From the sequence record OR352941.1: a stretch of DNA of 64,000 nucleotides; one strand, 5' to 3'. A program made the position numbers and the translations under genes. Of the stretch, positions 21,295 through 39,053 are shown piece after piece; within the stretch, counting starts at the first letter, position 1, and every line of letters begins with the position of its first letter. The stretch is from Escherichia phage AV111. Below the pieces are notes generated by a model. The model saw nothing but the letters and a program-made list of their open reading frames with translations, did not search any database and was not told the DNA's origin.

Positions 21295-24200
21295 ATGGCC
21301 GACATCAAACGTAAGTTCAGAGCCGAAGACGGTCTGGACGCCGGTGGCGACAAGATTGTTAACGTAGCATTAGCCGACCGTACAGTAGGTACTGATGGCG
21401 TAAACGTTGACTTCCTGGTACAAGAAAACACCGTTCAAGTATATGATTCTACGCGTGGATATAACAAAGGATTTGTTGTTCTTTATGACAACCTTTTATA
21501 TCAAGCAATAAATGATATCGTGTCTCCTTCCGGGGCATTTAACCTTTTACAATGGCGTGCAGTTCGTACTGATGCACAATGGATAACTGTCGCTTCTGGG
21601 ACTTATCAACTTTCTTCAGGTGAATCGATTTCGGTTAACACTGGGGCCGGCAATGATATGGTTTTCACGTTGCCGAATACGCCGGTTGATGGCGATACTG
21701 TTGTTTTGGCTGATATTGGCGGAAGAACCGGGACAGTTAAAGTACAGATTAACGCGTCTGTGCAGAGTATTTTAAACTTTAGAGGTGAACAAGTTCGTAC
21801 AGTTTTAATGACGCGCCCACGTTCACAACTATTGTTTGTGTTTAGTAATCGTTTGTGGCAGATGTATATTACCGATTATGGTAAAGAATCAATCACTGTT
21901 ACACCAGCGTCACCATATCAAGCACAAGCAAATGATTTTATCGTTCGTCGTTTTACTAGTGCAGCACCAATCAACATTACACTTCCACGTAATGCTAACA
22001 ATGGTGATATAATCAGCCTAGTCGATTTAGATAAATTAAACCCACTGTATCATACAATTGTTAAAACATTTGATGATACAACGTCTATTGGTGAAGTCGG
22101 GACTCATATTGCCGAAGGCAGAAATGACTCTGACGCGTTTTTTGTTTTTGATGCTGCAAGTAGTTTATGGCGTATATGGGAAGGCGACCAGAAATCGCGT
22201 CTTCGTATTATCCGTGCGGATTCAAATATTCGTCCAAATGAAGAAGTTCTTATTTTTGGCACAAATAACGCTACAGCCGGAACTATTAATCTTACACTGC
22301 CTACCGGAATTTTGAGTGGTGACACTGTTAAAATTTCAATGAACTACATGCGTAAAGGCCAAACAGTAAAAATTAAAGCTGCCGAAGGTGATACAATTGC
22401 TTCTTCTGTTGCATTGCTTCAGTTCCCTAAACGTTCTGAATATCCACCTGATGCTCAATGGGTCTCTGTTACTGAACTAGAATTCAATGGCACTACTTCA
22501 TATGTTCCTGTATTAGAATTAGCGTATATCGAAGACACCGTTGCTGGTACAAGTTATTGGGTTGTTCAACAAAACGTCCCAACTGTAGAACGTGTCGATG
22601 CATCGAGCAATACAACTCGAGCTCGTTTAGGTGTTATTGCTCTTGCTTCTCAAGCGCAAGCAAATGTTGATTTAGAGAATACTCCAGCTAAAGAAGTGGC
22701 TATTACTCCTGAAACGTTGGCAAATCGTACAGCAACTGAATCTCGACGTGGTATCGCTAAAATTGCTACAACAGCACAAGTTAACCAGAATTCCACAGCA
22801 TCATTTGTGGACGATACTATTGTTACGCCTAAAAAACTAAATGAGCGTACAGCAACTGAAACTCGTCGCGGTCTTGCTGAAATTGCTACTCAGGCCGAAA
22901 CCGATGCTGGTCTTGATGACACAACGATTATTACACCTAAGAAATTGCAGGCACGTCAGGGCTCTGAAACACTATCTGGTATAGTTAAATATGTATCAAC
23001 TACTTCTGCTACTCCTGCTGAAACTCGTGGGGCCGCAGGCACTAACGTTTATAATAAAACCGTAAATAATTTAACTATTTCTCCTAAAGCCCTTGACCAA
23101 TATAAAGCAACTTATGCTCAACAAGGTGCAGTAATTTTAGCTGTTGATAGTGAAGTAATTGCTGGTCAATCCCAAGCAGGTTATTCTCACGCTGTAGTAA
23201 CTCCTGAAACACTACATAAGAAAACTTCTACTGATGGACGTATTGGTTTAATTGAAATTGCTACGCAAGCAGAAACTAATGCTGGGACTGATTATACACG
23301 TGCAGTAACGCCTAAGACGTTAAATGATAGGAAAGCTACGGAAGGATTATCCGGCATAGCCGAACTTGCTACGCAAGTTGAATTTGATACTGGAACTGAT
23401 GATACTCGTATCTCGACTCCACTGAAAATTAAAACTCATTTTGATTCTTCTGACCGTACCAGTGTTAATTCTGATTCCGGACTTATTGAAGAAGGAACCT
23501 TGTGGAACCATTATACTCTTGATATTTCTAAAGCAAATGAAACACAACGCGGTACACTTCGCGTAGCGACCCAGGCAGAATCTAATGCAGGAACTTTAGA
23601 TGATGTTCTTATTACTCCTAAAAAGCTTTTAGGGACTAAGTCCACTGAAACGTCTGAAGGTGTAATTAAGGTTGCTACTCAAGATGAAACTGTAACGGGA
23701 ACTTCCACTAATACTGCTGTATCTCCTAAGAATTTAAAATGGATTGTCCAGTCTGAACCAACATGGGCTGCTACTACAGCAATTCGCGGATTCGTTAAAA
23801 CTTCATCCGGTTCTATTACATTTGTTGGTAATGATACAGTTGGTTCAACACAACCTTTAGAATCATATGAAAAAAATAGCTATGCTATATCTCCATATGA
23901 ATTAAACCGTGTACTTGCTAACTATTTGCCATTAAAAGCAAAAGCTGCTGATAGTAATTTGTTAGATGGTCTAGATTCTCTTCAGTTCATCCGTAGAGAC
24001 ATCGACCAGACGGTTAATGGTTCTTTAAGTCTTACTAAACAGACCAACCTGAGTGCTCCTTTAGTATCTACAAGCACTGCTTCTTTTGGTTCCGAAGCAT
24101 CTGTTACTCGTAGATTAACTCTTAATGACTCTAGCGGTTCCGAAATAATTTTCACTAAAGGAACCCAATCTCTTAGTAATAAAGAGAATTTCGTTGTTAG

Positions 24201-25128
24201 AGCATGGGGTAATAGCGCTACAGATGGTGCCCGTGATACAGTATTTGAAGCGGGTGACGAAACCGGATACCATTTCTATTCTCAGCGCGCTGCTGATAAT
24301 AAAGTATCATTTAATATTAATGGAACACTTTATTCAACAGGTATTGTTTCTACAAATGGATTAAATGTTACGGGTGTTTCTACCTTTACCGGGCCTATTA
24401 GTGCTACAGGCGAAATTGTTTCTAGTTCTCCTATTGCATTCAGAGCTATTAACGGTAACTATGGTGTTATGCTTTATAACGCTGGTAACAGTTCTTATAT
24501 TGCATTAACTAACTCAGGTGACCAGACCGGGACGTTTAATAACTTACGCCCGATCACGATTAACAACGCCACAGGCTTAGTTCGTCTTGACAATGGTGTT
24601 CAAATCACAAGTGGTGCAACAATAACTACCGGCGGGTTAACTGTAAATAACAGAATTATTTCTAACGGCGTTAAAACTGCCACGGTTTATACCGATAAAC
24701 CAACAGCTTCTACTGTAGGTTTTTGGTCTATTGACATTAACGATTCTGCTGTATATAGCCAATTCCCTGGATACTGGACGCGTGATAACAAAGGTAACCG
24801 TGACCAAGAAATTAAATATCCTGGTACTTTGACTCAATTCGGCAATAGCTTAGATTCGCTTTATCAGGATTGGATTTGTTATCCTACGGGTGCAAATGGT
24901 GGTAGTATTCGTTATACTCGTACCTGGCAGAAAAATAAAGATGCTTGGACTTCATTTGCAATGGTATTTGATAGTGGCAACCCACCTTCACCTAGCGATG
25001 TCGGTGCTATCCCATCTGATAATGCTGTTATTGGAAACCTTACTATTCGAGACTTCTTACAATTAGGAAATGTGAGAATTGTTCCGGACCCGGTTAACAA
25101 AACAGTTAAATTTATATGGGTTGAATAA
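21295..25128 (+). CDS. 34: long tail fibre proximal subunit gp34, 1277 aa
   Basis: Size, position after rnh, repetitive tail-fibre-type sequence. Confidence 0.9.
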   Translation: MADIKRKFRAEDGLDAGGDKIVNVALADRTVGTDGVNVDFLVQENTVQVYDSTRGYNKGFVVLYDNLLYQAINDIVSPSGAFNLLQWRAVRTDAQWITVASGTYQLSSGESISVNTGAGNDMVFTLPNTPVDGDTVVLADIGGRTGTVKVQINASVQSILNFRGEQVRTVLMTRPRSQLLFVFSNRLWQMYITDYGKESITVTPASPYQAQANDFIVRRFTSAAPINITLPRNANNGDIISLVDLDKLNPLYHTIVKTFDDTTSIGEVGTHIAEGRNDSDAFFVFDAASSLWRIWEGDQKSRLRIIRADSNIRPNEEVLIFGTNNATAGTINLTLPTGILSGDTVKISMNYMRKGQTVKIKAAEGDTIASSVALLQFPKRSEYPPDAQWVSVTELEFNGTTSYVPVLELAYIEDTVAGTSYWVVQQNVPTVERVDASSNTTRARLGVIALASQAQANVDLENTPAKEVAITPETLANRTATESRRGIAKIATTAQVNQNSTASFVDDTIVTPKKLNERTATETRRGLAEIATQAETDAGLDDTTIITPKKLQARQGSETLSGIVKYVSTTSATPAETRGAAGTNVYNKTVNNLTISPKALDQYKATYAQQGAVILAVDSEVIAGQSQAGYSHAVVTPETLHKKTSTDGRIGLIEIATQAETNAGTDYTRAVTPKTLNDRKATEGLSGIAELATQVEFDTGTDDTRISTPLKIKTHFDSSDRTSVNSDSGLIEEGTLWNHYTLDISKANETQRGTLRVATQAESNAGTLDDVLITPKKLLGTKSTETSEGVIKVATQDETVTGTSTNTAVSPKNLKWIVQSEPTWAATTAIRGFVKTSSGSITFVGNDTVGSTQPLESYEKNSYAISPYELNRVLANYLPLKAKAADSNLLDGLDSLQFIRRDIDQTVNGSLSLTKQTNLSAPLVSTSTASFGSEASVTRRLTLNDSSGSEIIFTKGTQSLSNKENFVVRAWGNSATDGARDTVFEAGDETGYHFYSQRAADNKVSFNINGTLYSTGIVSTNGLNVTGVSTFTGPISATGEIVSSSPIAFRAINGNYGVMLYNAGNSSYIALTNSGDQTGTFNNLRPITINNATGLVRLDNGVQITSGATITTGGLTVNNRIISNGVKTATVYTDKPTASTVGFWSIDINDSAVYSQFPGYWTRDNKGNRDQEIKYPGTLTQFGNSLDSLYQDWICYPTGANGGSIRYTRTWQKNKDAWTSFAMVFDSGNPPSPSDVGAIPSDNAVIGNLTIRDFLQLGNVRIVPDPVNKTVKFIWVE

Positions 25129-25136
25129 GAGGTTAT

Positions 25137-26261
25137 ATGGAAAAATTTATGGCAAGGTTTGGACAGGGATACGTCCAAACGCCGTTTTTATCGGAAAGCA
25201 ATTCAGTTAGATTTAAGCTAAGTATAGCGGGTTCATGCCCGCTTTCAACAACTAATCCGTATATTTTGTTCCAAAACGAGCCTTTAGGGTTGCAGTCTTT
25301 TGGTATTGGACTAAATGTTAGGGTGATAAATCCGGAAAATGGAACTATAGTTGATAGTAAATTATACAATTTTGCGCCTACAAATAATGCAACTTCGGCC
25401 GCGTTTATTTCGTTTGTTAATACATACGCGGATAATTTCATTTTCGCATTTATTTCTAATAACAAATTTAATTTGCCGCCAGAAATAATTGAATGGTTTA
25501 AAGCTGCTGGGAGTTCAGTTATACCGTCAATTGAAGTTGCTAGTCTTGTTGATATTTCATATTCAGCGTTTTATGTTTCAGGTAAAAATACTATTGCATT
25601 AGAACACATAAAATACAGTAATAAGAAAACAATTTCTGATTACGCAACTCCATTAGATATTGTATATGACTCTATTGCTGATATAGGTGCTACCGGCTAT
25701 CCTAGACGTACATATGAAGCTCTAGAAACGTTTTTATCTCCTGTTGAAGGAACTAACAATGAAATAAAAAGGATGCCTACATCATCCCTTGTTACTCCTA
25801 TCGCAAACTATGGATTAAAGCCTACAGATTTTCTTTATTTGAAATTTCAATTAATGGCTGATGAAGAATTATTAGAGGAAGGAACCACAAGACTTTCAAT
25901 TCGTTTCTTTAAGTCTCCATCTAGCTCTCCTATATCATCTAAAGATATAAACTTTGATGGAACTGCCGGGGAGTGGAAGCTATATGAAGAATACGTTGAA
26001 ATACCAGCTGAAGCTGATGGCTTTACAGTATATTGTTACCGTACGGCCCCAGTCGGTCAAGGTGGACTAAGAAATGTTATTTTCACTGAAGTATCATGTA
26101 ACGGAAGTATAGCAAAACCAGCCGAGTTTGGTATAAACGGTATTCGTGCTAATTACATCGATGAATCATTAACCGGTAATGATATAATGGACTTGCCTAC
26201 TCAGTTATCTAACGACACAGGTAAGGTATTTGGGCAGGAATTTAAAGAGTACACAGAATAA
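25137..26261 (+). CDS. 35: long tail fibre hinge connector gp35, 374 aa
   Basis: Size and synteny. Confidence 0.8.
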   Translation: MEKFMARFGQGYVQTPFLSESNSVRFKLSIAGSCPLSTTNPYILFQNEPLGLQSFGIGLNVRVINPENGTIVDSKLYNFAPTNNATSAAFISFVNTYADNFIFAFISNNKFNLPPEIIEWFKAAGSSVIPSIEVASLVDISYSAFYVSGKNTIALEHIKYSNKKTISDYATPLDIVYDSIADIGATGYPRRTYEALETFLSPVEGTNNEIKRMPTSSLVTPIANYGLKPTDFLYLKFQLMADEELLEEGTTRLSIRFFKSPSSSPISSKDINFDGTAGEWKLYEEYVEIPAEADGFTVYCYRTAPVGQGGLRNVIFTEVSCNGSIAKPAEFGINGIRANYIDESLTGNDIMDLPTQLSNDTGKVFGQEFKEYTE

Positions 26262-26286: not shown

Positions 26287-26294
26287 TATAAATA
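26287..26294 (+). promoter_or_regulatory. late promoter TATAAATA for gene 36
   Basis: Exact TATAAATA 26 nt upstream of the gene 36 ATG. Confidence 0.6.
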
Positions 26295-26320: not shown

Positions 26321-26977
26321 ATGGCCGATTTAAAAGCCGGAAGTACAGTTGGTGGTTCCGTCATATGGCATCAAGGCAATTTTCCTTTAATGCCAGCTGG
26401 CGATGACATCCTATATAAAACATTTAAATTATACACCGAATATAACAAGCCAAAAGCGGCTGATAACGATTTCGTATCTAAAGCAAATGGTGGGACATAT
26501 CTCAAAAAGGTAATCTTTAACGAAGGTGTTGCAGTCAAAACAGCAGATGACCAAACGAATGGTATTTTTTCTGGTGGTGGTGACGCCGCGACATTTGACC
26601 AAACAAACATGGATATTGTTTCATGGTATGGTATTGGGTTTAAATCATCTCAAGGTACAGGTGAAAGAACTGTTGTAATTGATACTCGCACCGGTAATAT
26701 AAGTTCTAAAGGCGTTATTGAAGCATCTCAATTCAGAGCCACAACGTTAGCACCTTTAAATAATTACGACCTTACTCGCAAAGATTATGTTGATAGTCAA
26801 ATAAATACAGTTAATGCTAATGCAAACAGTCGTGTACTCCGTTCAGGAGATACGATGACCGGCGCGCTAACCGCCCCAAACTTTTTCTCACAGAATCCTG
26901 CATCTCAACCCTCGCATGTTCCACGATTTGACCAAATTGTTATTAAGGATTCTGTTCAAGATTTCGGCTATTATTAA
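26321..26977 (+). CDS. 36: long tail fibre distal connector gp36, 218 aa
   Basis: Size and synteny. Confidence 0.8.
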   Translation: MADLKAGSTVGGSVIWHQGNFPLMPAGDDILYKTFKLYTEYNKPKAADNDFVSKANGGTYLKKVIFNEGVAVKTADDQTNGIFSGGGDAATFDQTNMDIVSWYGIGFKSSQGTGERTVVIDTRTGNISSKGVIEASQFRATTLAPLNNYDLTRKDYVDSQINTVNANANSRVLRSGDTMTGALTAPNFFSQNPASQPSHVPRFDQIVIKDSVQDFGYY

Positions 26978-26985
26978 GAGGACTT

Positions 26986-29900
26986 ATGGCTACTTTAAAA
27001 CAAATACAATTTAAAAGAAGCAAAACTGCAGGAGCACGTCCTGCCGCTTCAGTATTAGCCGAAGGTGAATTGGCTATAAACTTAAAAGACCGTGTACTTT
27101 TTACTAAAGATGACCAAGGAAATATTATTGATCTGAGTTTTGCTAAAGGCGGTAGTATTGACGGGAATGTTATTCATACAGGTAATTATAACCAAACCGG
27201 CGATTATACTTTAAATGGCACCTTCACTCAGACAGGTAATTTTAATTTAACTGGTATTGCTCGAGTAACTCGTGATATTATTGCCGCTGGGCAGATTATG
27301 ACTGAAGGCGGTGAACTTATTACAAAAAGTTCAGGTACAGCACATGTTCGTTTTCATGATTCAGCTGACCGTGAACGTGGAATCATTTTTTCTCCTGCTA
27401 ATGACGGATTAACTACACAAGTTCTTAATATTAGAGTTCAAGATTACAAAGCCGGTTCAGAAAGCACTTTCGCTTTTAATGGAAATGGTTTGTTTTCTTC
27501 ACCAGAAGTTTTTGGGTGGAAATCTGTATCAACTCCGGTAATTTATACCAATAAAGTTATTACTAATAAAAAGGTTAAAGGTGATTATGACATCTATTCG
27601 TTGGCTGACAACACTCCTTTAACCGAAAGCGAAACAGCAATTAATCATCTTCGTGTCATGCGTAATGCAGTTGGTTCGGGTATTTTCCATGAAGTTAAAG
27701 ATAATGACGGTATCTCATGGTACGCTGGTGATGGGCTTGACGCATATCTTTGGTCGTTTACCTGGTCCGGTGGATTGAAAGCAGGCCATTCTATTTCTGT
27801 TGGTACTCCTGGTGGCAATAAAGGATACTCTGAATTAGGGACTGCTTCAATTTCTCTTGGTGATAATGATACTGGATTTAAATGGCATCAGGATGGATAT
27901 TTCCATACAGTAAACAACGGAACAAGAACTTTCATTTACGGTCCTGCGGAAACACAAAGCCTTAGAAAAATGGTTATGGGTTATTCTCCGGATGGTGTTC
28001 TTATGACAACGCCACCGACAGAAAACTATGCCCTGGCAACTGTAGTTACTTACCACGATAATAACGCGGTTGGAGATGGTCAAACTCTTTTAGGATATTA
28101 TCAAGGTGGAGCATACCACCACTATTTTCGTGGTAAAGGCACTACAAACATTAACACCGCGGGTGGTTTGTTAGTTACTCCAGCCAATATCGACGTGATT
28201 GGCGGTTTAATTAATATCGACGGTCGCAGTAATGCTTCAACCTTACTGTTTAGTAGCTATACGTCCGGTCAAAGCTCTGTCGATAATATGAATATACGCG
28301 TTTGGGGCGATACTTTTACTACTGTAGGTGGTACTCGCAAAAACGTAATGGAAATATCTGATGCCACTAGCTGGATGCAATATATTCAACGAACAACTGC
28401 AGGTAAAGTCGAATCGGTTCTAAACGGCACCCAGATTGTTAATGAAAACTTGACCGTAGTAAAAAATGCTACATTTGATGGTACAATCAGCGCAGCAGGT
28501 GAAATCGCAACAAATGCAGTAAATGGTCTTCGTATTTGGAACAACGATTACGCCGCTATTTTCCGTCGTTCAGAAGGAAGTCTTCATATTATTCCAACTG
28601 CCTTTGGCGAAGGCAAAAATGGTGATATCGGCCCACTTCGTCCATTTAGTTTGGCTTTAGATACTGGTAAAGTTACTATTCCAGATTTACAATCAAGTTA
28701 CAATACGTTCGCAGCAAACGGATATATTAAATTTACCGGTCACGGCGCTGGTGCAGGTGGTTATGCTATTCAGTATTCGCAAGCAGCTCCTATTTTCCAG
28801 GAAATTGATGATGACGCAGTAAGTAAATATTATCCTATTGTTAAACAAAAATTCTTACAAGGAAAGGCTGTTTGGTCTTTAGGTACTGAAATTAATTCTG
28901 GTACTTTTGTTTTGCATCATTTAAAAGAAGATGGAACTCAAGCTCATACCTCAAGATTTAATGCCGATGGTACAGTTAACTTCCCGGATAACGTCCAAGT
29001 TGGTGGTGGTGAAGCTACTATTGCTAAAAATGGCAATATTTTCTCTGATATTTGGAAAACATTTACTTCAGCTGGCGATGTAACTAATATTCGAGACGCT
29101 ATTGCTACCCGTGTTGCCAAAGAAGGTGATACGATGACCGGCCGCTTAACCCTTAAAACCAACTCAGATGCTGTTGTTATCGATTATCCGGCAGATGAAG
29201 CGGGTTATGTTAAGGGTAAAAAAGGTGGTGTTGATAACTGGTATGTAGGTAATGGTGGTGCTGATAACGGTTTAGCTTTCTGGAGCTTCCAATCCCAAGG
29301 TGGTATTAATATCAACCCGAACGGTGAAGTTATTCTGGCGCCGCAAGGTGTTGCAATAGTCAATATAAACCGCGACCGTATTCATATGAATGGTTCCAAC
29401 TGGATTGCACATAAATCTGGTGCATGGGGTGACCAATGGGGCTTAGAAGCACCTTATTTCCTTGATTTTGGTAGCGTTGGTGAAGATAGTTATTATCCTA
29501 TTATTAAAGGCCGTTCTGTAATTACCGGTCAAGGATATACTACTTCTGTTGACCTTGGTATTAGACGTACACCCCAACAATGGGGACAAGCTATAATTCG
29601 AGTAGGTAATGCTGAACGAGCTGACGGCCCTGTAGGTATTTTTGAATTCCATTCGTCTGGACTATTCTATAGCCCTACTATGGTTCAAACTCCGGCAATT
29701 GGTGTTGGTACTGTTAACGGATTAGGTGCTCCGAGTATTGCAATCGGTGATAATGACACTGGCTTATCACATGGCGGTGATGGTCGAGTTAATATGGTTG
29801 CTAACGGGATGCATATTGCATCTTGGTCTAGCTCTTACCATATCCATGAAGGTCTTTGGGATACCACTGGTGCTTTGTGGACCGAAACAGGAAGAGCTAT

Positions 29901-30306
29901 TATTTCTTTTGGTCATTTAGTCCAACAGAGTGATGCCTATTCCACATTTGTTCGAGATGTTTATGTCCGTTCTGATATTCGTGTTAAAAAAGACCTTGTT
30001 AAATTTGAAAATGCTTCTGAGAAGCTTTCTAAAATTAACGGTTACACTTATATGCAGAAACGTGGAACTGACGAAGAAGGTAATCAGAAATGGGAACCTA
30101 ACGCTGGTTTGATAGCTCAAGAAGTTCAAGCTATTTTACCGGAATTAGTTGAAGGCGACCCTGATGGTGAAGCTTTACTTCGTTTGAACTATAACGGTGT
30201 AATTGGTTTAAATACAGCTGCAATCAATGAACATACTGCAGAAATTGCAGAACTTAAGTCAGAGATTGAAGAGCTTAAAAAATTAGTTAAATCATTGTTA
30301 AAATAA
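26986..30306 (+). CDS. 37: long tail fibre distal subunit gp37, 1106 aa, with C-terminal S74-type intramolecular chaperone domain
   Basis: Synteny; C-terminal about 110 aa beginning SDIRVKKDL...[15 protein letters not shown]... resembles auto-cleaving chaperone domains. Confidence 0.85.
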
Positions 30307-30310
30307 TAAG

Positions 30311-30326
30311 AGGGGCTTAGGCCCCT
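30311..30326 (+). other. stem-loop GGGGC-UUAG-GCCCC between genes 37 and 38
   Basis: aggggcttaggcccct followed by the gene 38 SD GGAGG. Confidence 0.4.
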
Positions 30327-30337
30327 TGGAGGTTTAT

Positions 30338-31132
30338 ATGGCAGTTGAAGGACCGTGGGTTGGATGGTCTGCGAGGGTACAAACTGGAGATCCTTGGATG
30401 GGTGGTGCTGCGCAGAGATTGAGAATGGGAATTCCGTTTTGGATGAGTAATATGATAGGTCGATCTGTTGAAATAATTCACACGCTTGGAGCAGACCATA
30501 ACTTCAATGGTCAATGGTTCCGAGATAGATGTTTTGAGGCAGGTAGTGCGCCTATAGTGTTTAATATTACAGGTGATTTAGTGTCTTATAACAGGGACGT
30601 CCCGTTATTCTTTATGAATGGAGATACGCCTAATGAATACGTTACTTTGAATATTCACGGCGGAGTTCACATGTGGGGCCGCGGTGGCCAAGGTGGTTGG
30701 ACACACTCAGGCGGTGACGGTAACGGGCAATGGGGCGGTGATTGTATTGTTAACCATATAGGCACCCGTTTACGTATATGGAACTACGGTGTTATCTGTG
30801 GCGGCGGTGGCGGCGGCGGTGGTATCGCTTATCGTCCTCACTCTGGTGCTAACTGGCAGGATATTGGCGGTGGCGGCGGAAGACCATTTGGCCCAGGAGG
30901 TGGAGGTGGCTATTCTGGTGGTGGAGCTTCTTATGAAGGCCCGGGTGGTGGATATAACTACGGTAACGCTCACTCTGGGCATGGTGGCGATGCAGGCGGC
31001 GCAGGTCAAAACGCCTGGCAAGATGGCGGGAAAGCGCTTAAAGTAGGAGCAGGTGGCGGTTCTGGTGCAGCTGTTGCAGTGTCATCCCCGATGTGGGGAG
31101 CAACAGGTACTATCTATGGCCCATGGCTATAA
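30338..31132 (+). CDS. 38: T2-type tail fibre adhesin gp38 with glycine-rich motifs, about 264 aa
   Basis: Conserved N-terminus (…[39 protein letters not shown]…) and poly-Gly segments (GGGGGGGG, GGGGG); ATG at 30338 with GGAGG 5 nt upstream. Confidence 0.8.
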
Positions 31133-31148
31133 TACGAAAGTATTAAAT

Positions 31149-31156
31149 TATAAATA
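31149..31156 (+). promoter_or_regulatory. late promoter TATAAATA for holin gene t
   Basis: Exact TATAAATA 19 nt upstream of the t ATG. Confidence 0.6.
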
Positions 31157-31174
31157 TCTTTAAAGGAGAAAAGT

Positions 31175-31828
31175 ATGGAACCAAAAGTAGGATTTTCATT
31201 AACAGACCTACTTTTTGGACTTCTTGATAGAATTTTTAAAGATACTACTTCCGGGAAAGTAGTTTTTTCCCGGGTCCTAGTCGTAATATTATTGTTCTTT
31301 ATGACATTGATTTGGTATAAAGGCGAGTATATTCTAAACTTTTATAAAGAGACTACTTATGCCTCTTATACTGAAATGATTAGACAAGACCAGGACAATA
31401 GATTTAAAATTGCGGCTATCGAGCAGCTCCGAATAGTGCATTCTTCTTCAGGCGCAGACTTCACAGCGGTATATTCTTTTAGACCTACCAACATGAATTA
31501 TTTTGTGGATATGGTGGCTTATGAGGGTAAATTACCGGAAACGGTAGACGCAAAAAATACGGGAGGGTTTCCGATTGACAAAACGTCAGTAGAGTATATG
31601 GCAGGTGTTAACGGGAACTATTTTGAATCCACTACAGAAACTGTGTTCCTTCCTACAAAGAAGAAAACACAATTCACGTATATGTTTTCATGCCCGTTTT
31701 TTAATTTGGATAACGTCTACGCCGGCTCGATATCATTATACTGGTATGATATCAAACCGGATTTAGGATTTCCTAGACTTTCGTCTATGTGTGGTCAGGC
31801 CGGGAGGACATTAGGTCGAACTCGTTAA
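31175..31828 (+). CDS. t: holin T, 217 aa
   Basis: N-terminal TM segment then large periplasmic domain; …FVDMVAYEGKLPE… and …SCPFFNLDNVYAGSISLYWY… match T4 T as recalled. Confidence 0.9.
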   Translation: MEPKVGFSLTDLLFGLLDRIFKDTTSGKVVFSRVLVVILLFFMTLIWYKGEYILNFYKETTYASYTEMIRQDQDNRFKIAAIEQLRIVHSSSGADFTAVYSFRPTNMNYFVDMVAYEGKLPETVDAKNTGGFPIDKTSVEYMAGVNGNYFESTTETVFLPTKKKTQFTYMFSCPFFNLDNVYAGSISLYWYDIKPDLGFPRLSSMCGQAGRTLGRTR

Positions 31829-32100
31829 AAATTGGAGGTATACATCATTAAGTAACGGTGTATATCTTCATACCCTTCATTAAATTGCTCAATAAGAGTA
31901 TCACGTTCATCTTCAGTTAAAGACTTAAAGAGTTTATTAAAAGATAGACCATTAAGTTCCTTTCCATGTTCATTACGAATACCTAGCTCGTTCAAAAAGG
32001 CAATAAACTCATCACGACGTTGCATGATGTCTTCACAATCCGTTTTAATTAAAATAGAAACAATAGTGGCAATTTCAGAAACGATTTCAATTTTAGTCAT
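31825..32100 (-). CDS. asiA: anti-sigma-70 factor AsiA, 91 aa
   Basis: …ATIVSILIK…FIAFLNELG… and …LIEQFNEGYEDIHRYLMMYT… match T4 AsiA as recalled. Confidence 0.85.
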   Translation of the reverse strand: MTKIEIVSEIATIVSILIKTDCEDIMQRRDEFIAFLNELGIRNEHGKELNGLSFNKLFKSLTEDERDTLIEQFNEGYEDIHRYLMMYTSNF

Positions 32101-32411
32101 TTTAATTTACTCAAGTATTCAATAGGACGTTCATTATTCAATAAGAATATTGTAACACTATTCTTCTAGGTTGTACATATGATTTTTCATCCGTACAACA
32201 TATTCCTGATATATCTCTTCTACTGGTTCCTGGAACTTAAAATCAGCTCCCAGGAATTCCTCAAAGCACTCCTGCTCACGTGTACGCATACCTGATATAG
32301 TATTCTCTAAGTTATGACTAATAGCCTTTACCCTTATGTTTCTGTTTACGCTTAGACTCTTTAAAGTTTTTCTTCTTGTCCTTATGGACAGACGCCTTAT
32401 TGAAATCGTGC

Positions 32412-32693
32412 TTAGCTACCAGATTGTTCATGCAATCTCCTTAATTGATATTCGAGAGAACTAATAATTTCTTTATTAGTTGCGATATACATATCACGCA
32501 GGAAAGGCTTCAATCCTACCATGCTTTCATAAAATGTCTTAGAACTAATATCCTTTATATATTCATGGTCTAAAGCGTCCCATGCCGGTTGGTTAACATA
32601 AGTACCCCAGTTATCTTCCATCATAGCATTCAGGCGTTTGATATGATTAATGTGGGCTTCGATTGCGTCAATTTGGAGTTGTTTAAGATTCAT
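32412..32693 (-). CDS. hypothetical protein, 93 aa (arn position)
   Basis: ORF track; sits where T4 has arn but sequence identity not confirmed. Confidence 0.45.
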   Translation of the reverse strand: MNLKQLQIDAIEAHINHIKRLNAMMEDNWGTYVNQPAWDALDHEYIKDISSKTFYESMVGLKPFLRDMYIATNKEIISSLEYQLRRLHEQSGS

Positions 32694-33154
32694 TAGTAAA
32701 GGTCCTCAGAGTAAAGTTCTTTTTCACTACCACCACGTTCAATACGAACTTGATTAGCATATGTTGCAATAATCATTGCTTCTTCACGCGTCCAGTAATT
32801 AGAGTATTGGTCAATAAAACCTTGGTCGTCACCACAAACTTGTTGCGAGACTAATTGAGGACCAACTATATCAAGTACTTCAGCCATATCTTTAGAGTAA
32901 TGACGAACTCCAGGAATAATCAGAGTTCCGCCGCTCTTCAATTTAAACCTATTAGCTGCACATACTATAACACGTTGAACTTTTTGGTCATTGTTCCAAT
33001 AGCACGTTTGCCAACAGATTTCAGGAACTTCATTCATTATATCATCAGCAGAATAATTATAACCGTAGGACTGGAATTTTTCTGCTAGACTTTCAGGAGT
33101 CTCACGAGACAAGGCCAAATCTAATAGCTCTAAACGTTCTTTAAATGATTTCAT
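32693..33154 (-). CDS. hypothetical protein, 153 aa
   Basis: ORF track. Confidence 0.5.
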
Positions 33155-33480
33155 TTAAACCATTCCTTAATACGTTGCCAAATAGATTTTTGTGCTTGTT
33201 TATTTACACCAATCGAACGAATAACCGGTTGTGACTGCTGATATTCTTTATAATCTTCTTTATAGATTTCGTAAGCCGCATCAACAAATGAACTGATCGC
33301 TGCCATGTAGTTTTTACGAAGGCCAAATGGCGCATCATTATTTTCACGAATAACCATATATTGGCCTGCTTTAATCTTTACAATTGTCCCTAAATAAGCC
33401 CCGTGGTACCAAATATCCCATCCTTCCTGAGTAGGTTCTGCACATTTACGAAGTTCGTTAATAATATTCAGCTTATTCAT
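33151..33480 (-). CDS. hypothetical protein, 109 aa
   Basis: ORF track. Confidence 0.5.
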
Positions 33481-33490
33481 TATGTATTCC

Positions 33491-34123
33491 TCACAGTACG
33501 TTAGTTACAAGGGTAATGATTTCTTTGGACACATTAGGGAAGTCAATGTAAGTATATTTACCACCGATCTTAATCTTAACATCATTTTCAAGAGAAGTAA
33601 ACAGCTTTGATTCAGTTTCTGACATGTTGTATGCAAAGATTCTAAGAGCACCATCTCGACGAATTTCGATCTGACGAATACCTAGAACTCGTTTTGCAAA
33701 TCGAACTTCTAAGTTACTACGGTTTTCACCAATTTCTTTAACTTCAACTTTATCTTTAATATTTTCAAAAACAAAGTTTGCTAATTCATGCATTTCAGGA
33801 GTAACTCCACGTGCTTTTCTGGTGTTACGTTTCTGAAGAAGTTCTGGAGCATTTTCTTGGGCAAATAGGTCTGCAGCTTTTTGGATAATATCCATTGCTT
33901 CGCCTGTTGCTATAAGTCCATCACCAGATTTTTCGACTAAACCTTTCTTAATCAATACACCAATGTTAGAGTTAACAACTGATGCATTGTATTCTGCTTC
34001 CAGAGCTTCACGGACATTGGCAGCAGTGGTGAAGTTGTTCTTAATGATATAAACCATTATTGCAGCAGTTTTTTCATTCAGAACGTTTTCAGAAGCTTTG
34101 ATGATGTAAGTAACTTTAGACAT
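33491..34123 (-). CDS. motA: middle-promoter transcription activator MotA, 210 aa
   Basis: MSKVTYIIKAS...NSNIGVLIKKGLVEKSGDGLI... matches T4 MotA. Confidence 0.85.
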   Translation of the reverse strand: MSKVTYIIKASENVLNEKTAAIMVYIIKNNFTTAANVREALEAEYNASVVNSNIGVLIKKGLVEKSGDGLIATGEAMDIIQKAADLFAQENAPELLQKRNTRKARGVTPEMHELANFVFENIKDKVEVKEIGENRSNLEVRFAKRVLGIRQIEIRRDGALRIFAYNMSETESKLFTSLENDVKIKIGGKYTYIDFPNVSKEIITLVTNVL

Positions 34124-34153
34124 TTTATTTCTCCAATTTGGTTGTTTTGTTTT

Positions 34154-34191
34154 GATAGGTCTATAATATCATGTTTGAAGCACATGTAAAC
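34154..34191 (-). promoter_or_regulatory. T4-type early promoter for motA
   Basis: plus-strand gtaaac 34186-34191; ataggtctataatatcat 34154-34171. Confidence 0.45.
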
Positions 34192-34214
34192 TGTTTTGTG
34201 AGGAAAAAAATGCA

Positions 34215-34236
34215 CAAAAGGGAGCCGAAGCTCCCT
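34215..34236 (-). terminator. hairpin GGGAGC-UUCG-GCUCCC 3' of gene 52
   Basis: gggagccgaagctccc at 34218-34233. Confidence 0.45.
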
Positions 34237-34311
34237 AATCATGCATGTCCAACCAATACAGCCAAATCACTAGTGCAGCTATTGCACCGAGAAATCCTAA
34301 GGCTAGGGCAC

Positions 34312-35637
34312 TCAAAGTGCCTCCAAGTCTTTAGTGTACTCTGTCACAACATCAGTAGACTTCCAATACTCATTTTCTTCTTTCTTAGCTTTAGCTTCTT
34401 CTGCTAGTTTACGTGCTTCATCGGAAGTGATATGGAAGATGTTAAGACCTACCAGTTTATCGACATGTTCTTTATACATTTCGATTTGTGCTAGCTCTTC
34501 AGTCAAAGCTTTACGAGTCTTGCCCTGAATCACAATTTCGCCGCTGATAACTTTTTTGATGAAGTGTGCCTTAGCAAAAGCAAGTTTAAATGCTTTTTCA
34601 GATTCAATGATTTTGTTATCAATACGTTTCTGAACGTAAGTCTTACGGACTTCAACAAAATCTTTGATTAAGTCCACTACGTTATCATAGACCGCTAATT
34701 TACCCTTTTCATTAATCACTGTGATGTTTTGTGAACGACGTTCTATGAGACTAAAATCTTTCATGATTTTTTCATGACGTAGCTCTTCATCATCAGGAAG
34801 CGAGTACTCTTTACGGAACTTCACCTTAAACCCAAAGCCGTGTTCACCGCAATCATCTTCCCATGAGATTAGACCTTTGTCTTCCAACGGGTCAAGAACC
34901 TTACTCACATACGTTTCACGGTCGAATTTATATGGGATTTCAGTTATCTGCATTTGAGTGCGAGATGTGAACTTATATGTTCCGTGAATCTCATAACGCC
35001 CATCAACTTCATGTACTTCACCACGGAATTCCGGGAATTCAACTTTTGGCTTAGTGACATTTTTACCTTGAAGAGCTTGTAATACAGCCTTTTTTACCGA
35101 TTTAAAACTATGAGGCAGAATATTTGTTGCGTAACCGGTTGCAATACCAGAGACGCCATTCAAAAGAACTGTCGGAATAATAGGAAGATAGAATTTTGGT
35201 GGAATGTGTTCTTTATCTTCATGAGCTGGAGCATATTCAGTATCTTTATATACGTTATAGAAATTTTTACTTACACGAGCAAAAATATAACGAGATGCTG
35301 CAGCTTTTTGGACTGTTCGAGAACCAAAGTTGCCTTGGCCATCTAACAGTGGATAGTTGTTGTTCCATGTGTTAGCCATCAATGCACCTGCATCTTGTGC
35401 AGAAGATTCACCATGGTGATAACCTAAATCTGCAACACCGCCTGCAATTGACGCAAGTTTATGAAATTTTTCTTTATTGCCACGAGCCAAATCTAACGCA
35501 CGATGAACCACAAAACGTTGAACCGGCTTAAATCCATCAATCATGTTTGGGATTGCACGGTTTTCAACGGTGTACATCGCATATGCTAAGGCTTCGTTAT
35601 CAATAATACTTTTTAGATTACGAGAATTCAATTGCAT
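34312..35637 (-). CDS. 52: DNA topoisomerase II medium subunit gp52 (GyrA-like cleavage-religation subunit), 441 aa
   Basis: …AIPNMIDGFKPVQRFV… GyrA-type active-site region; size and position as in T4. Confidence 0.9.
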   Translation of the reverse strand: MQLNSRNLKSIIDNEALAYAMYTVENRAIPNMIDGFKPVQRFVVHRALDLARGNKEKFHKLASIAGGVADLGYHHGESSAQDAGALMANTWNNNYPLLDGQGNFGSRTVQKAAASRYIFARVSKNFYNVYKDTEYAPAHEDKEHIPPKFYLPIIPTVLLNGVSGIATGYATNILPHSFKSVKKAVLQALQGKNVTKPKVEFPEFRGEVHEVDGRYEIHGTYKFTSRTQMQITEIPYKFDRETYVSKVLDPLEDKGLISWEDDCGEHGFGFKVKFRKEYSLPDDEELRHEKIMKDFSLIERRSQNITVINEKGKLAVYDNVVDLIKDFVEVRKTYVQKRIDNKIIESEKAFKLAFAKAHFIKKVISGEIVIQGKTRKALTEELAQIEMYKEHVDKLVGLNIFHITSDEARKLAEEAKAKKEENEYWKSTDVVTEYTKDLEAL

Positions 35638-35641
35638 ATTT

Positions 35642-35782
35642 TCACCATATTAATGAACGAATAACCATTATAACATCCGAAATGAAAAGCACTACTTGGA
35701 TTAGTCCAAACATCACACCGTAGTACAGAACCGTAAGCAACAACAAGAGCCCGAAGGCTCCTGCTAAGATTTTCTTAATCAT
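35642..35782 (-). CDS. small hydrophobic protein, 46 aa
   Basis: Hand-translated MIKKILAGAFGLLLLLTVLYYGVMFGLIQVVLFISDVIMVIRSLIW; ATG overlaps upstream stop (TAATG). Confidence 0.35.
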   Translation of the reverse strand: MIKKILAGAFGLLLLLTVLYYGVMFGLIQVVLFISDVIMVIRSLIW

Positions 35783-35928
35783 TACTCGCCTTTTAACACG
35801 TTAAAAAGAGCTAAGACCGCTAAGGTGCCTTGTGATACGGCCTGTTGAAATACCGTTGTTTCGCCTGTAACTAAAGTGTTAACGAATAAAAACGACCAAC
35901 ACAACAATGCAATAATCCATGATACCAT
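35782..35928 (-). CDS. small hydrophobic protein, 48 aa
   Basis: Hand-translated MVSWIIALLCWSFLFVNTLVTGETTVFQQAVSQGTLAVLALFNVLKGE; GAGGTAATTAAAATG start context. Confidence 0.35.
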   Translation of the reverse strand: MVSWIIALLCWSFLFVNTLVTGETTVFQQAVSQGTLAVLALFNVLKGE

Positions 35929-35980
35929 TTTAATTACCTCAAAAATAAATTAAAGGCCCAACTTAATAGGCCTGTATAAA

Positions 35981-36427
35981 TTAGTAACTCTGCAGAATGA
36001 ATTTGAAATTATCTGCCAGAAGACGGTTCATTTCAGTGAGTGTTTGATATTCTGATGTATGGTTGCGAGTGAATGCCAGAGCCAATTGACCTTTACCATA
36101 ACCAGTGGTCAGTGGTTTCATGTTCTTAGCTGCAACAAAGATTACATCATATTCAATATTGTTAGTGCCCATGGTACGGGCTAGTTGTGAACGGCCTTGA
36201 CGAATGTGAGAAAGAATTGCATCCAACCCTTGTTTAGAACGTTGACGTCCTACAAAGAATCGTGCTGCTACTTGTCGCCAATCAGATGAACCTTTAACAA
36301 AGAAGTAAAAACCTTCACGAGAACGAAACTCTTTAGAAACTTCAGAACCGTATTCGCCATTACGAACTACTGCAACAACTTCACCACCAACTGCCAGAAG
36401 GTCTTTACGAGTTAAATATTTGGACAT
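35981..36427 (-). CDS. ndd: nucleoid disruption protein Ndd, 148 aa
   Basis: …[28 protein letters not shown]… and …[40 protein letters not shown]… match T4 Ndd as recalled. Confidence 0.85.
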
Positions 36428-36472
36428 GCTAATTTCCTCAATTGATTAATGTTTTTGTAATCCATGAGAGCA

Positions 36473-36500
36473 TTATACTCTGCTCTCAAGAGTTTGTACA
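36473..36500 (-). promoter_or_regulatory. T4-type early promoter for ndd; -10 TATAAT flanked by GAGAGCA / TGCTCTC inverted repeat
   Basis: plus-strand attata 36473-36478, tttgtaca 36493-36500; arms covary with the 6867 promoter. Confidence 0.5.
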
Positions 36501-36503
36501 ATT

Positions 36504-36704
36504 TTATTCGGCTATATCAGAACGTTCAAAAAGCTCTTCAACAGTTAAACATTCAGTGTCATCTTCAATAAAGAATCGAGTCCAACACGTTGGGGCGATA
36601 CAGTTATGAGTTTGTCCGGCTATAGAAGCTACACGAATAAGCTGCTGGCCATTATTCAGGACAAATTTTTCACCAATTTCAACATCTTTAAAAAGCTTAG
36701 CCAT
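36504..36704 (-). CDS. hypothetical protein, 66 aa
   Basis: ORF track. Confidence 0.45.
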   Translation of the reverse strand: MAKLFKDVEIGEKFVLNNGQQLIRVASIAGQTHNCIAPTCWTRFFIEDDTECLTVEELFERSDIAE

Positions 36705-36730
36705 TTTGTTTTCCTCTTGATTTGATGTGA

Positions 36731-36762
36731 TTACTATACCATAATCCTATCGTGATGTAAAC
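36731..36762 (-). promoter_or_regulatory. T4-type early promoter
   Basis: plus-strand gtaaac 36757-36762; ttactatacc 36731-36740. Confidence 0.4.
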
Positions 36763-36954
36763 AATTAAATTACATTAAAATATGTTAAAGCCAACCATGT
36801 TCCAGTGAACGAACATGCAATGTAAAAACCAGTATCACAAATTGTTCTTAGTACAATAAGAAGTGCATTTTTCATAAGTACCTCAATGCAATTGAAAATA
36901 TTATACAAATCATAGGGATACTAAGCAACCATATTCCAATCCACATTTTAGAGC

Positions 36955-37218
36955 TCATATCTCAACTTCCGCGAGTTCCATATATCCTTTGTTGATAACC
37001 TCTTTAAGGTCTTTAGAAAGAATGACATTAAAATGGTCGTTCATATGTCCATTAACTAAACGAGTTATTTCGGCTTCAGATGACATATAAGGCACGTCCG
37101 AGTCCCAATGAGATAGACCCAAATGGGTATAAATCATCCCTTCGTCGTCTGCAGTGTTGTACATTGAAACAAATTCGCCTGTTACTTTATGTTTTGCGTA
37201 GAAAAATTTAAATTTCAT
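36955..37218 (-). CDS. hypothetical protein, 87 aa
   Basis: ORF track. Confidence 0.5.
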   Translation of the reverse strand: MKFKFFYAKHKVTGEFVSMYNTADDEGMIYTHLGLSHWDSDVPYMSSEAEITRLVNGHMNDHFNVILSKDLKEVINKGYMELAEVEI

Positions 37219-37242
37219 GATGTTATCCTCTTTTAGATAGGA

Positions 37243-37274
37243 CTACTATATCATAGTCCTACTTAGTTGTAAAC
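37243..37274 (-). promoter_or_regulatory. T4-type early promoter, -10 flanked by TAGGACT / AGTCCTA inverted repeat
   Basis: plus-strand gtaaac 37269-37274; actactatatcat 37243-37255. Confidence 0.4.
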
Positions 37275-37286
37275 ACTTTTATGAAA

Positions 37287-37844
37287 TTAAAGATGAAGAT
37301 ACCACCCGTTGTAGTTGCTCTTGCGGACGATTTTCTTTAGGTCTTCATGGTCTCCCACGAACTTTATAGAATAGGAGAAGACGTCAGGTGAGGTTTCTTT
37401 GACATCTAATATAATAATGCAATCTGCGACTCGATGGTTCAAGAAGGGCCCTATATTGATTCCATTACCACCAGGATAATCACCACTGTATCCTGTGGTA
37501 ACCGAAATCCATTTAGAATCTATCTGGTGCGTCTTGACTTCGACACGCAACCCGCAATATTTAGGATGAGCTAACACGTCCCATGCATACGTGTACGGGT
37601 CTTCTACGTCTTCAATACCTTTATTAACATATCCATCTAGCCAATTTGCTACTACATACTCTGCAAAGACCGCAACCTTACAACGTCGAACAACGTCTTC
37701 TTTTATTTGACCTGGATCTTGTTTCAACGAGTACCGAGCAGTATCAGCGATCTTAACCTTCATTTCGCTAGTCAAAAACTCATTCGACAGGATAAATGTC
37801 GGAAGACTCTTCAGCCTCAACAGCCCCAAGTTCGTCTTTACCAT
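37287..37844 (-). CDS. denB: probable endonuclease IV (DenB), about 185 aa
   Basis: Position immediately downstream of rIIB as in T4; start chosen at MVKTNLG... to give the T4 DenB length; no motif confirmed. Confidence 0.45.
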   Translation of the reverse strand: MVKTNLGLLRLKSLPTFILSNEFLTSEMKVKIADTARYSLKQDPGQIKEDVVRRCKVAVFAEYVVANWLDGYVNKGIEDVEDPYTYAWDVLAHPKYCGLRVEVKTHQIDSKWISVTTGYSGDYPGGNGINIGPFLNHRVADCIIILDVKETSPDVFSYSIKFVGDHEDLKKIVRKSNYNGWYLHL

Positions 37845-38067
37845 AGATACCTCTGATGTGTAGTTCGCCAAAATAAATGCGGTCACCTTCTTCAAGATAT
37901 TCTGCATCTACAGGCGGAATTTCAATAACAACTTCGTCGCATTCTAACCAGCCGTAGTGTGCATCACCAGGATGTTTTACCAATTTAGCGCAATAAACTG
38001 ATTTACACTTATGATGACCACGAAGATTAGCAATTTTGGATTCTGATACGTCAAATGGATGAATCAT
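37780..38067 (-). CDS. hypothetical protein, 95 aa
   Basis: ORF track; overlaps the 5' end of the denB-like ORF. Confidence 0.4.
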   Translation of the reverse strand: MIHPFDVSESKIANLRGHHKCKSVYCAKLVKHPGDAHYGWLECDEVVIEIPPVDAEYLEEGDRIYFGELHIRGIYGKDELGAVEAEESSDIYPVE

Positions 38068-38077
38068 AATTACCCCT

Positions 38078-38103
38078 AAAGAAAAAAGGGGACCGAAGTC
38101 CCC
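38078..38103 (-). terminator. intrinsic terminator 3' of rIIB (GGGGAC-UUCG-GUCCCC + U6)
   Basis: ggggaccgaagtcccc at 38087-38102 preceded on plus strand by aaaaaa. Confidence 0.55.
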
Positions 38104-38108
38104 AATTA

Positions 38109-39044
38109 TTATTCTGCAAATAATTCAGTAACGTCTGAAATTACTTCATAACGACAAGTACGCATCTTAGCATCACCATAGTCAACTGGGATAGATACAA
38201 CATCACGTGGATGAACTTTAACCTTAACAACTTTATCTGAGCTAGAACCAAAGTAACGAATATATGATTTAGCACAAACATGTAGACCACGGGAGCAGGT
38301 TTGAGTATCATCATCGTTAACACGAGTACGAGGCATTGAAACAACTTTACCAGGCGAGTTATCAAATGTGCCGCTATAGCAATCTAAATAGTCTTTACGA
38401 ACTACTTTCCACGCATAGAAATGCCCATCTTCAGTGATTTCAATATCGTTTGCAACCAAGAAGTCGAATAAACGTTGTACAGCTTTTTCGCTTGGGTTTT
38501 CTAACAGGTTTTCAAGGAACGGCAGATAGAATTTAAAGTCTTCGCCTTTTTCCATGGAATCAATAATACGATTAACCAGTCCTGAACGAATCTCTATACC
38601 TTGATAAAATAAACTACCACCTTCAATAGTAACATTACCATCAACAAACTTAGTAATAGCTTTCTTGATGTTAATAAGTTCGACAGCTTTACTAAGGTTT
38701 CCTGCGACCAGATTAGCTTTAATTTCTTCAAAATTTGCATGACTTGATGGGGTCGCATTGTATGCTACGCGTCCTTCAATAATTGAAATAAATTTAGATG
38801 ACGCGTTCCATACGATTTCAGGACGATGTCCGCCGATAATAGGTTCATCATTTTCTGGGACCTGTTCTTCGTCTTCAAATTCAGCTGCTTTCTCTTCAGC
38901 TTTAAAATTCTTAACAATCTTACGAAGAGTATCTGTTGAAATGTCAAAGTAATCGGCAATTTCTTTACGGGTCCATTTGCCTGATTTAACCAGGCCATAA
39001 GCTTCTAACTGTTCTTCTTGGGACAAGCATTTGATATTGTACAT
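38109..39044 (-). CDS. rIIB: rIIB membrane-associated protein, 311 aa
   Basis: MYNIKCL... and long C-terminal identity blocks with T4 rIIB (…EGGSLFYQ…, …RLFDFLVANDIEITEDG…FYAWKVVR…). Confidence 0.9.
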   Translation of the reverse strand: MYNIKCLSQEEQLEAYGLVKSGKWTRKEIADYFDISTDTLRKIVKNFKAEEKAAEFEDEEQVPENDEPIIGGHRPEIVWNASSKFISIIEGRVAYNATPSSHANFEEIKANLVAGNLSKAVELINIKKAITKFVDGNVTIEGGSLFYQGIEIRSGLVNRIIDSMEKGEDFKFYLPFLENLLENPSEKAVQRLFDFLVANDIEITEDGHFYAWKVVRKDYLDCYSGTFDNSPGKVVSMPRTRVNDDDTQTCSRGLHVCAKSYIRYFGSSSDKVVKVKVHPRDVVSIPVDYGDAKMRTCRYEVISDVTELFAE

Positions 39045-39053
39045 AATGTTTCC

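Follow-up and report, generated by a model that had tools for sequence, protein, structure and literature searches.

In this study, we observed that genes 37 and 38 of Escherichia phage AV111 very probably encode the distal tip module of a long tail fibre of the T2/S16 type, built from a gp37 with a self-removing C-terminal intramolecular chaperone (IMC) and a docked gp38 that would use OmpA as its receptor. AV111, a Mosigvirus (OR352941), was obtained with an ESBL strain of E. coli as isolation host (Vitt et al., PMC10844046), and the analysis covered a stretch of 64,000 nucleotides of its DNA (the window). The two tip proteins encoded here are 100% identical over their full lengths to the AV111 records of gp37 (WPK34197.1, 1106 aa) and gp38 (WPK34198.1, 264 aa). 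In a nucleotide search, the window DNA from 32565 to 40000 showed 96–97% identity to the Mosigvirus phages ST2, SF and PHB12, and for the g37-g38-t-asiA stretch the best nucleotide identity was about 81–88% in the phage collection searched, a modest value that is explained by the absence of the AV111 record from this collection.

The ORF map places the tip genes at the end of a long-tail-fibre locus on the plus strand, which comprises g34 (21295–25128, +), g35 (25137–26261, +), g36 (26321–26977, +), g37 (26986–30306, +) and g38 (30338–31132, +, 264 aa counted from the ATG). It is followed by the holin gene t (31175–31828, +) and by asiA on the opposite strand (31825–32100, −). The region of interest begins at 29971, the first base of the gp37 Ser996 codon, and ends at 31132, the final base of the g38 stop codon. 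Gene 37 closes with the double stop TAATAA (stop codon 30304–30306), and the next gene downstream, g38, opens with the ATG at 30338. This layout, with g38 directly behind a g37 whose C-terminus is an IMC, is repeated in 12 relatives.

Between the g37 stop codon and the g38 ribosome-binding site, an RNA hairpin with a GC-rich stem of 7 bp (GAGGGGC-UUAG-GCCCCUU, 30310..30327, +) folds with −13.2 kcal/mol. Its position is kept in 12/12 relatives with differing stem sequences, and in most of these 12 the hairpin carries a C(UUCG)G tetraloop, the loop of the classic stable T4 intergenic hairpin. It is directly followed by the g38 Shine-Dalgarno sequence GGAGG (30328..30332, +), which was read from the sequence 5 nt before the ATG and is also kept in the relatives. 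A TTG at 30326 was rejected as the g38 start, since the ATG at 30338 has this GGAGG 5 nt upstream and yields the MAV... start of all homologues. A motif search detected the late-promoter-like TATAAATA 34 nt upstream of g36 (26287..26294, +). This motif, which we take to be a T4 late promoter, precedes g34 by 38 nt, g36 by 34 nt and t by 26 nt, and none was found before g37 or g38; its count across the 64,000-nt window is seven, which is not above chance. The presence of TATAAATA before g36 but not before g37 or g38 is consistent with a common late transcript of g36, g37 and g38, and the motif at 26287 is probably the start of this transcript.

Three further ORFs (30317–30514, −; 30770–31021, −; 30789–31046, +) lie within g38 and were rejected as genes. 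Their products are rich in Ala, Val and Thr, as expected from out-of-frame or antisense reading of a GGN-rich sequence. The GC content climbs to 52% at 30500–30999; because GGN glycine codons would produce such a rise, it was attributed to these codons and rejected as a sign of foreign DNA.

The chaperone at the end of gp37

Gene 37 (26986..30306, +), recognised by its ORF and its Peptidase_S74 match in Pfam, encodes the precursor of the long tail fibre distal subunit with 1106 residues. The IMC forms the extreme C-terminus of this protein, as it occupies the final 111 residues (996–1106; 29971..30303, +), and is defined by the Pfam family PF13884 and by the S16 gp37 chain 6F45_A. Its Pfam S74 core (residues 996–1055; 29971–30150, +) matches Peptidase_S74 (PF13884, 'Chaperone of endosialidase') with 48.6 bits at a cut-off of 22 bits (E 9.7e-13, model positions 1–57 of 58), and gp37 additionally has sub-threshold Pfam matches to Gp34_trimer and gp37_trimer. 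In the PDB search, the final 211 residues of gp37 align with the crystallised S16 gp37 construct 6F45_A (E 2.4e-46), and the 111-residue tail alone aligns with residues 93–204 of the same chain (E 3.6e-32), with SDIRVKKD placed over SDRRIKKD. The S74-type chaperone of about 110 residues that had been proposed for this gp37 from the letters of the DNA is thus borne out.

The same proposal had likened the domain to the IMCs of endosialidases and of the T5 L-shaped fibres, which holds at the level of the family. With the single sequence, the PDB yielded weaker matches to 8JOV, a tail fibre of a phage with SDERLK, and to the autoproteolytic domain of MYRF (7DC3). When six T2-type IMCs were combined into a profile, the search retrieved 7DC3 (2.2e-9), 8JOV (4.5e-7) and the GA-1 neck appendage 3GUD (1.4e-3), the last of which was not reached by the single-sequence search of the PDB. 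At E<=1, neither the single sequence nor the six-sequence profile recovered an endosialidase or T5 pb1 chain from the PDB, so that gp37 is connected with these proteins by way of the Pfam family and 3GUD. Peptidase_S74 IMCs such as those of endosialidase K1F, T5 pb1, 3GUD and 7DC3 share with gp37 the PF13884 match and a Ser-x4-Lys dyad at the start of the domain, although the similarity is family-level only (E 1e-3 to 1e-9).

The predicted dyad consists of Ser996 (29971–29973, +), the first residue of the domain, and Lys1001 (29986–29988, +), five residues downstream, within S996-D-I-R-V-K1001. Both residues of the SDxRxK motif are kept in 13/13 T2-type gp37 proteins compared, which supports the Ser-Lys dyad of the sequence-only reading. 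The longer motif (D/N)(V/L)(Y/N)(V/I)(R/S)|SDxRxK, here DVYVR|SDIRVK, is found in all of the 13 aligned C-termini, and S1, D2, R4 and K6 are invariant in an alignment of six T2-type IMCs. The motif is aligned with SDRRIK in S16, SDERLK in 8JOV and (A)DLRAK in MYRF. Towards the end of the IMC, residues ~1081–1106 (30226..30303, +) probably form a helical, coiled-coil-like segment with an approximate boundary; these terminal ~26 residues gave weak matches, and only to coiled-coil chains (NEMO, RevCC), and the alignment with the S16 IMC extends to the end of the domain.

The S16 IMC comprises the last 113 residues of its gp37 and autocleaves after trimerisation between the serines of DLNVS|SDRRIKK, a cut that exposes the docking surface for gp38 (PMC7917993). 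Cleavage of gp37 followed by capping with gp38 is also stated for T2 and T6 in a passage of PMC3157838 that cites Drexler et al. 1986. By homology, the AV111 gp37 is predicted to be cut at R995|S996 by the dyad of S996 and K1001, with release of a fragment of 111 residues. The residue ahead of the predicted cut is Arg in AV111 and Ser in S16. The mature distal tip upstream of it (residues ~896–995; 29671..29970, +) aligns to S16 gp37 in 6F45_A and is the predicted docking surface for gp38.

The gp38 adhesin and its predicted docking

Gene 38 (30338..31132, +) encodes a tail-fibre tip adhesin of 264 residues, as indicated by the Pfam families Gp38_N and GP38 and by the structures 9V85 and 6F45_D. 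Residues 1–40 match Gp38_N (PF21721) with 70.2 bits (E ~1e-19) and residues 45–264 match GP38 (PF05268) with 218.1 bits (E 1.7e-64), at a cut-off of 25 bits for each family. Over its full length gp38 aligns with S16 gp38 in the PDB (6F45_D, E 3.2e-48), and the best-scoring solved structure is the receptor-binding domain of PP01 gp38 (9V85, described in PMC12892980), to which residues 37–262 align with E 8.6e-63. The Pfam and PDB scores of gp37 and gp38 lie well outside the range of chance. In relatives, gp38 was described by structure and by swaps of variable segments as a monomer at the fibre tip of virions that determines host range (PMC6851490; PMC3157838).

The N-terminal attachment domain identified with Gp38_N (residues 1–40; 30338..30457, +) contains the tryptophans W7, W20 and W35. 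These align with W7, W20 and W36 of S16 and are conserved in every sequence covering those columns, in agreement with the conserved N-terminal attachment region that had been claimed for gp38. In S16, the gp37 tip has hydrophobic pockets that receive the three tryptophans of gp38 (PMC6851490). Two types of gp38 N-terminus, MAVEGPWVG... and MAVVGIPGWIG..., pair strictly with two types of gp37 tip ahead of the cleavage site in nine comparable relatives, and the 'type A' tip of AV111 goes with the MAVEGPWVG type in 6/6 phages. This co-variation supports docking as a matter of internal consistency.

The attachment domain is followed by a conserved central region with a linker and beta-helix strands (residues 41–115; 30458..30682, +), whose approximate boundaries were taken from the homology to S16 (PMC6851490), by a region of glycine-rich motifs (GRM) and hypervariable segments (HVS) that should form a polyglycine-II sandwich according to the alignment and S16 GRM3 (residues 116–241; 30683..31060, +), and by a C-terminal tail delimited by alignment (residues 242–264; 31061..31129, +). 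Glycine makes up 37.6% of residues 116–264 versus 12–15% in the N-terminal part, with runs that include one G8, two G5 and three G3. The G8 run (155–162) aligns with GRM3 of S16 (151–158), and conserved Gly motifs flank variable blocks in the alignment of 13 gp38 sequences. The poly-Gly motifs separated by variable segments were therefore correctly recognised beforehand; this region also aligns along its whole extent with 6F45_D and 9V85. In T2/S16-type gp38, the glycine-rich motifs form a polyglycine-II lattice and the hypervariable segments are the distal loops that bind the receptor (PMC6851490; PMC3157838). In a tblastn search of the phage collection, gp38 was aligned over residues 1–176 only, with the Gly-rich part masked by the low-complexity filter, and this part was compared by a DNA search with the 3' half of the gene and by our own alignments.

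We infer that cleavage and docking in AV111 would proceed as in its relatives. In the proposed sequence of events, gp37 would be made as a precursor of 1106 residues, whose segment S996–K1106 would act as a Peptidase_S74 intramolecular chaperone that nucleates and registers the trimeric beta-helical tip. The chaperone would then remove itself by autoproteolysis of the R995|S996 bond, catalysed by Ser996 and Lys1001, and the cut would give the fibre a new C-terminal end on which three symmetry-related hydrophobic pockets lie bare. Potentially, a single gp38 monomer docks there with the tryptophans W7, W20 and W35 of its three-helix N-terminal domain and turns its polyglycine-II 'sandwich' outwards, with the Gly-rich motifs as a scaffold and the hypervariable segments between them as distal receptor-binding loops. 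Loops of the 'OmpA type 1' kind known from Ox2, RB32 and AV119 would make OmpA the primary receptor, and the LPS core would also be needed for infection.

A structural precedent with this architecture is the gp37(3)-gp38 tip complex of S16 (6F45; Dunne et al. 2018). Its gp37 has a beta-helical tip and a C-terminal IMC that is cut off ahead of SDxRxK, and its gp38 combines a beta-helix with a polyglycine-II sandwich and docks through three tryptophans. It differs in that S16 gp38 shares only 45% identity with AV111 gp38 over the whole protein and 44.5% over the GRM/HVS region, S16 targets Salmonella OmpC, and the AV111 gp37 tip carries an insertion of 12 residues relative to S16. Alignment with T2 and PP01 gp37 and gp38, which had been suggested as a check, was carried out and showed the same architecture. 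With T2, whose adhesin uses FadL/OmpF, AV111 shares the gene order, an IMC (SDIRLK in T2), the proteolytic processing of gp37, as predicted for AV111, and a gp38 that acts as adhesin. However, gp38 is only 41% identical to that of T2 in every segment, with other variable loops and another receptor. Thus, the earlier designation 'T2-type' is justified for the architecture, which is T2-like and not T4-like, but does not extend to the allele. On the chaperone, the dyad, the build of gp38 and the T2-like architecture, the earlier reading also agrees with what has been published on the fibres of S16, T2 and T6 (PMC7917993; PMC6851490; PMC3157838). PP01 (9V85; OmpC of O157) has a gp37 tip and IMC nearly identical in type and is 85–91% identical in the N-terminal and central parts of gp38, whereas the identity falls to 43% in the GRM/HVS region; its receptor, OmpC, is also a different one.

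Adhesin allele, predicted receptor and mosaic composition

The gp38 of AV111 was aligned with those of 12 relatives, and for nine of these the receptor has been published; identities were calculated over the GRM/HVS region (residues 116–241). The highest values were obtained for VR26 (92.9%, annotated as Ox2-like), UPEC07 (92.1%) and TH15 (91.3%), three phages whose receptors are not typed. They are followed by RB32 (87.3%), which requires OmpA plus LPS (PMC3157838), and by AV119 (86.5%) and FL08 (85.7%), both of OmpA 'type 1' (PMC12032242). Adhesins of other specificities lie much lower, namely AlbertHofmann (OmpF, 49.6%), S16 (OmpC, 44.5%), T6 (Tsx, 43.1%), PP01 (OmpC, 42.6%), T2 (FadL, 40.8%) and FL18 (OmpA 'type 2', 38.1%). 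The variable region of AV111 gp38 thus clusters with the 'OmpA type 1' group of Ox2, RB32, AV119 and FL08 (Lutz et al. 2025) and not with other specificities. With the adhesins of this group (AV119, FL08, RB32/RB33 and the Ox2-like VR26, TH15 and UPEC07; GRM/HVS identity 86–93%), AV111 gp38 has the HVS1 motif, the HVS2 motif and a GGK.LKVG segment in common; it differs from them in its mosaic combination of parts.

From sequence alone, OmpA is therefore predicted as the receptor of AV111 gp38. The prediction agrees with published data, according to which AV111 needs OmpA and LPS on ECOR4 mutants and carries a gp38 of the same group as the gp38 proteins of AV119, AV120 and AV121 (Vitt et al., PMC10844046); for AV111, the finding has thus been reported before. 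The mutant panel suggested earlier for adsorption assays (ompC, ompF, fadL, tsx and LPS) omits ompA, the most likely receptor. Modelling of AV119 gp38 indicated that R165, R181 and R262 contact OmpA (PMC12032242). The equivalents of the first two, R166 and R182, are conserved in AV111, and R262 is replaced by W263.

Segment by segment, the gp38 of AV111 resembles different phages. Residues 1–40 are 100% identical to the Tequatrovirus AV119. For residues 41–115, the identity to VR26 and TH15, both Gapriverviruses, is 96%; in this segment the coliphage relatives other than T2 reach 85–96%, and the identity to T2 and S16 is 39% and 42%, respectively. The C-terminal tail (242–264) is 100% identical to the Gaprivervirus TH15 and 48% identical to AV119. 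In total, 38 positions differ from AV119, among them P167 and the replacement of R262-V263 by W263-L264. On the basis of these comparisons, AV111 gp38 is read as a mosaic, with an N-terminus like that of Tequatrovirus, loops of the Ox2 kind and a C-terminal tail as in Gaprivervirus.

Competing explanations and meaning

A T4-type arrangement, in which gp38 would only be an assembly chaperone outside the virion and the gp37 tip itself would bind the receptor, is extremely improbable. Several records label close gp38 homologues as 'distal long tail fiber assembly catalyst', which would fit such an arrangement; the literature, however, treats these labels as inherited T4 nomenclature (PMC6851490; PMC10844046). 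Moreover, gp38 matches only the adhesin families Gp38_N and GP38 together with 6F45_D and 9V85, and gp37 ends in an S74 IMC and has no Pfam match to the T4-type receptor-binding tip domain. Hardly more probable is that the S74 domain is a degenerate remnant that stays uncleaved on the mature fibre, with gp38 attached elsewhere or nowhere. This explanation draws on the fact that cleavage in AV111 is deduced from homology only. Against a degenerate domain, the IMC has an intact AGLIAQE core along with Ser996 and Lys1001, all of which are conserved in 13 homologues, it is 57% identical to that of S16, which is known to cleave, the Pfam score is twice the gathering threshold, and the docking tryptophans of gp38 are conserved.

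A T2/S16-type tip could also carry gp38 loops that bind a target other than OmpA, either another porin or LPS core sugars directly, so that the similarity to the OmpA type would be misleading. In RB68, the single substitution Q206L in gp38 changed the receptor from OmpF to OmpW, which shows that one substitution can switch the receptor, and the 38 differences from AV119 include the change from R262 to W263. In addition, AV111 failed to plate on the LPS mutants waaC and waaR (PMC10844046), and Ox2 and RB32 are listed with the phages that require two or more host receptors (Trojet et al., PMC3157838). We nevertheless regard a non-OmpA target as improbable, since AV111, with an identical gp38, was reported to depend on OmpA (PMC10844046), RB32, AV119 and FL08 (86–87% in the variable region) all require OmpA, and R166 and R182 match modelled OmpA contacts of AV119. 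It is also conceivable that the short tail fibres (gp12), and not gp38, account for the LPS dependence of AV111. Owing to the single-substitution switches, there may be differences in the use of OmpA loops between alleles, or a direct share of LPS in binding. It is tempting to speculate that the mosaic gp38 of AV111 uses the OmpA loops in a way other than AV119 and FL08 do, or that it binds LPS-core sugars besides OmpA, which we consider rather unlikely. If true, a dual specificity for OmpA and LPS would explain the failure to plate on waaC and waaR mutants as well as the broad host range of AV111.

The preferred reading remains the T2/S16-type tip module with OmpA as the receptor. Each of its elements has been published before, from the general architecture and the self-cleaving chaperone to the polyglycine fold of the adhesin and the receptor used by AV111. 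In summary, the locus matters only as routine annotation, and it is useful for the design of phage cocktails or for adhesin swaps.

Transcriptional organization of the fibre genes

The motif TATAAATA, the T4 late-promoter consensus, was observed on the + strand 38 nt before the start codon of g34 (21257-21264), 34 nt before that of g36 (26287-26294) and 26 nt before that of the holin gene t (31149-31156). Across the whole window it was found 7 times, against 6.8 expected, a count not above chance. No copy was found upstream of g37 (26986-30306), encoding the distal long-tail-fibre subunit, or of g38 (30338-31132), encoding the tip adhesin. Because TATAAATA precedes g34, g36 and t but neither g37 nor g38, its distribution suggests that g36, g37 and g38 form one late operon.

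In the g37-g38 gap a GC-rich RNA hairpin, GAGGGGC-UUAG-GCCCCUU (30310-30327; computed fold -13.2 kcal/mol), is flanked on its 5' side by the g37 double stop TAATAA and on its 3' side by the g38 Shine-Dalgarno sequence. All 12 relatives compared have a hairpin at the equivalent position; the stem sequences differ, and most of these hairpins close a C(UUCG)G tetraloop. The AV111 element is probably a stable intergenic mRNA hairpin of T4 type.

Domain composition of the fibre proteins

Compared with the tip of Salmonella phage S16 gp37, which lacks it, AV111 gp37 carries a 12-residue insertion at approximately residues 940-951 (29803-29838) that contains an H-x-H motif. This insertion is common to the 'type A' tips, which go with a MAVEGPWVG-type gp38 N-terminus, of PP01, AV119, FL08, FL18 and UPEC07. 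Proteins identical to AV111 gp37 and gp38 (30338-31132) are present in the protein collection searched. The 90%-identity gp38 cluster has one more member, likewise of 264 aa, from ENA metagenome contigs (two contigs, the longest 101 kb).

Further upstream, a likeness to Gp34_trimer, a domain of the proximal fibre subunit, sits in the middle of gp37 (residues 451-554, 28336-28647; 26.2 bits, slightly below the cut-off of 27), and residues 738-780 gave a sub-threshold gp37_trimer match. In the hinge connector gp35 (25137-26261), residues 58-131 match Pfam ILEI (PF15711; 30.2 bits vs a cut-off of 27, E 6.7e-7), the interleukin-like EMT inducer/FAM3 fold.

Ancestry of the adhesin region

The holin gene t, which encodes 217 aa, and asiA are convergent and share 4 nt (31825-31828). 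Gaprivervirus VR26 has this overlap too; in T2, PP01 and Mosigvirus AlbertHofmann the two genes are directly adjacent and do not overlap. For the 3' portion of g37 and for g38, t and asiA, DNA identity to any relative compared is at most about 79-82%; over the span from g38 to asiA, the closest of these relatives in DNA are Gapriverviruses. From approximately 32430 on, identity rises sharply to 91% with AlbertHofmann and is 96-97% with ST2 and SF. Judged by these DNA identities, 28500-33600 is of mosaic ancestry, and it appears that Tevenvirinae genera have exchanged the adhesin cassette.
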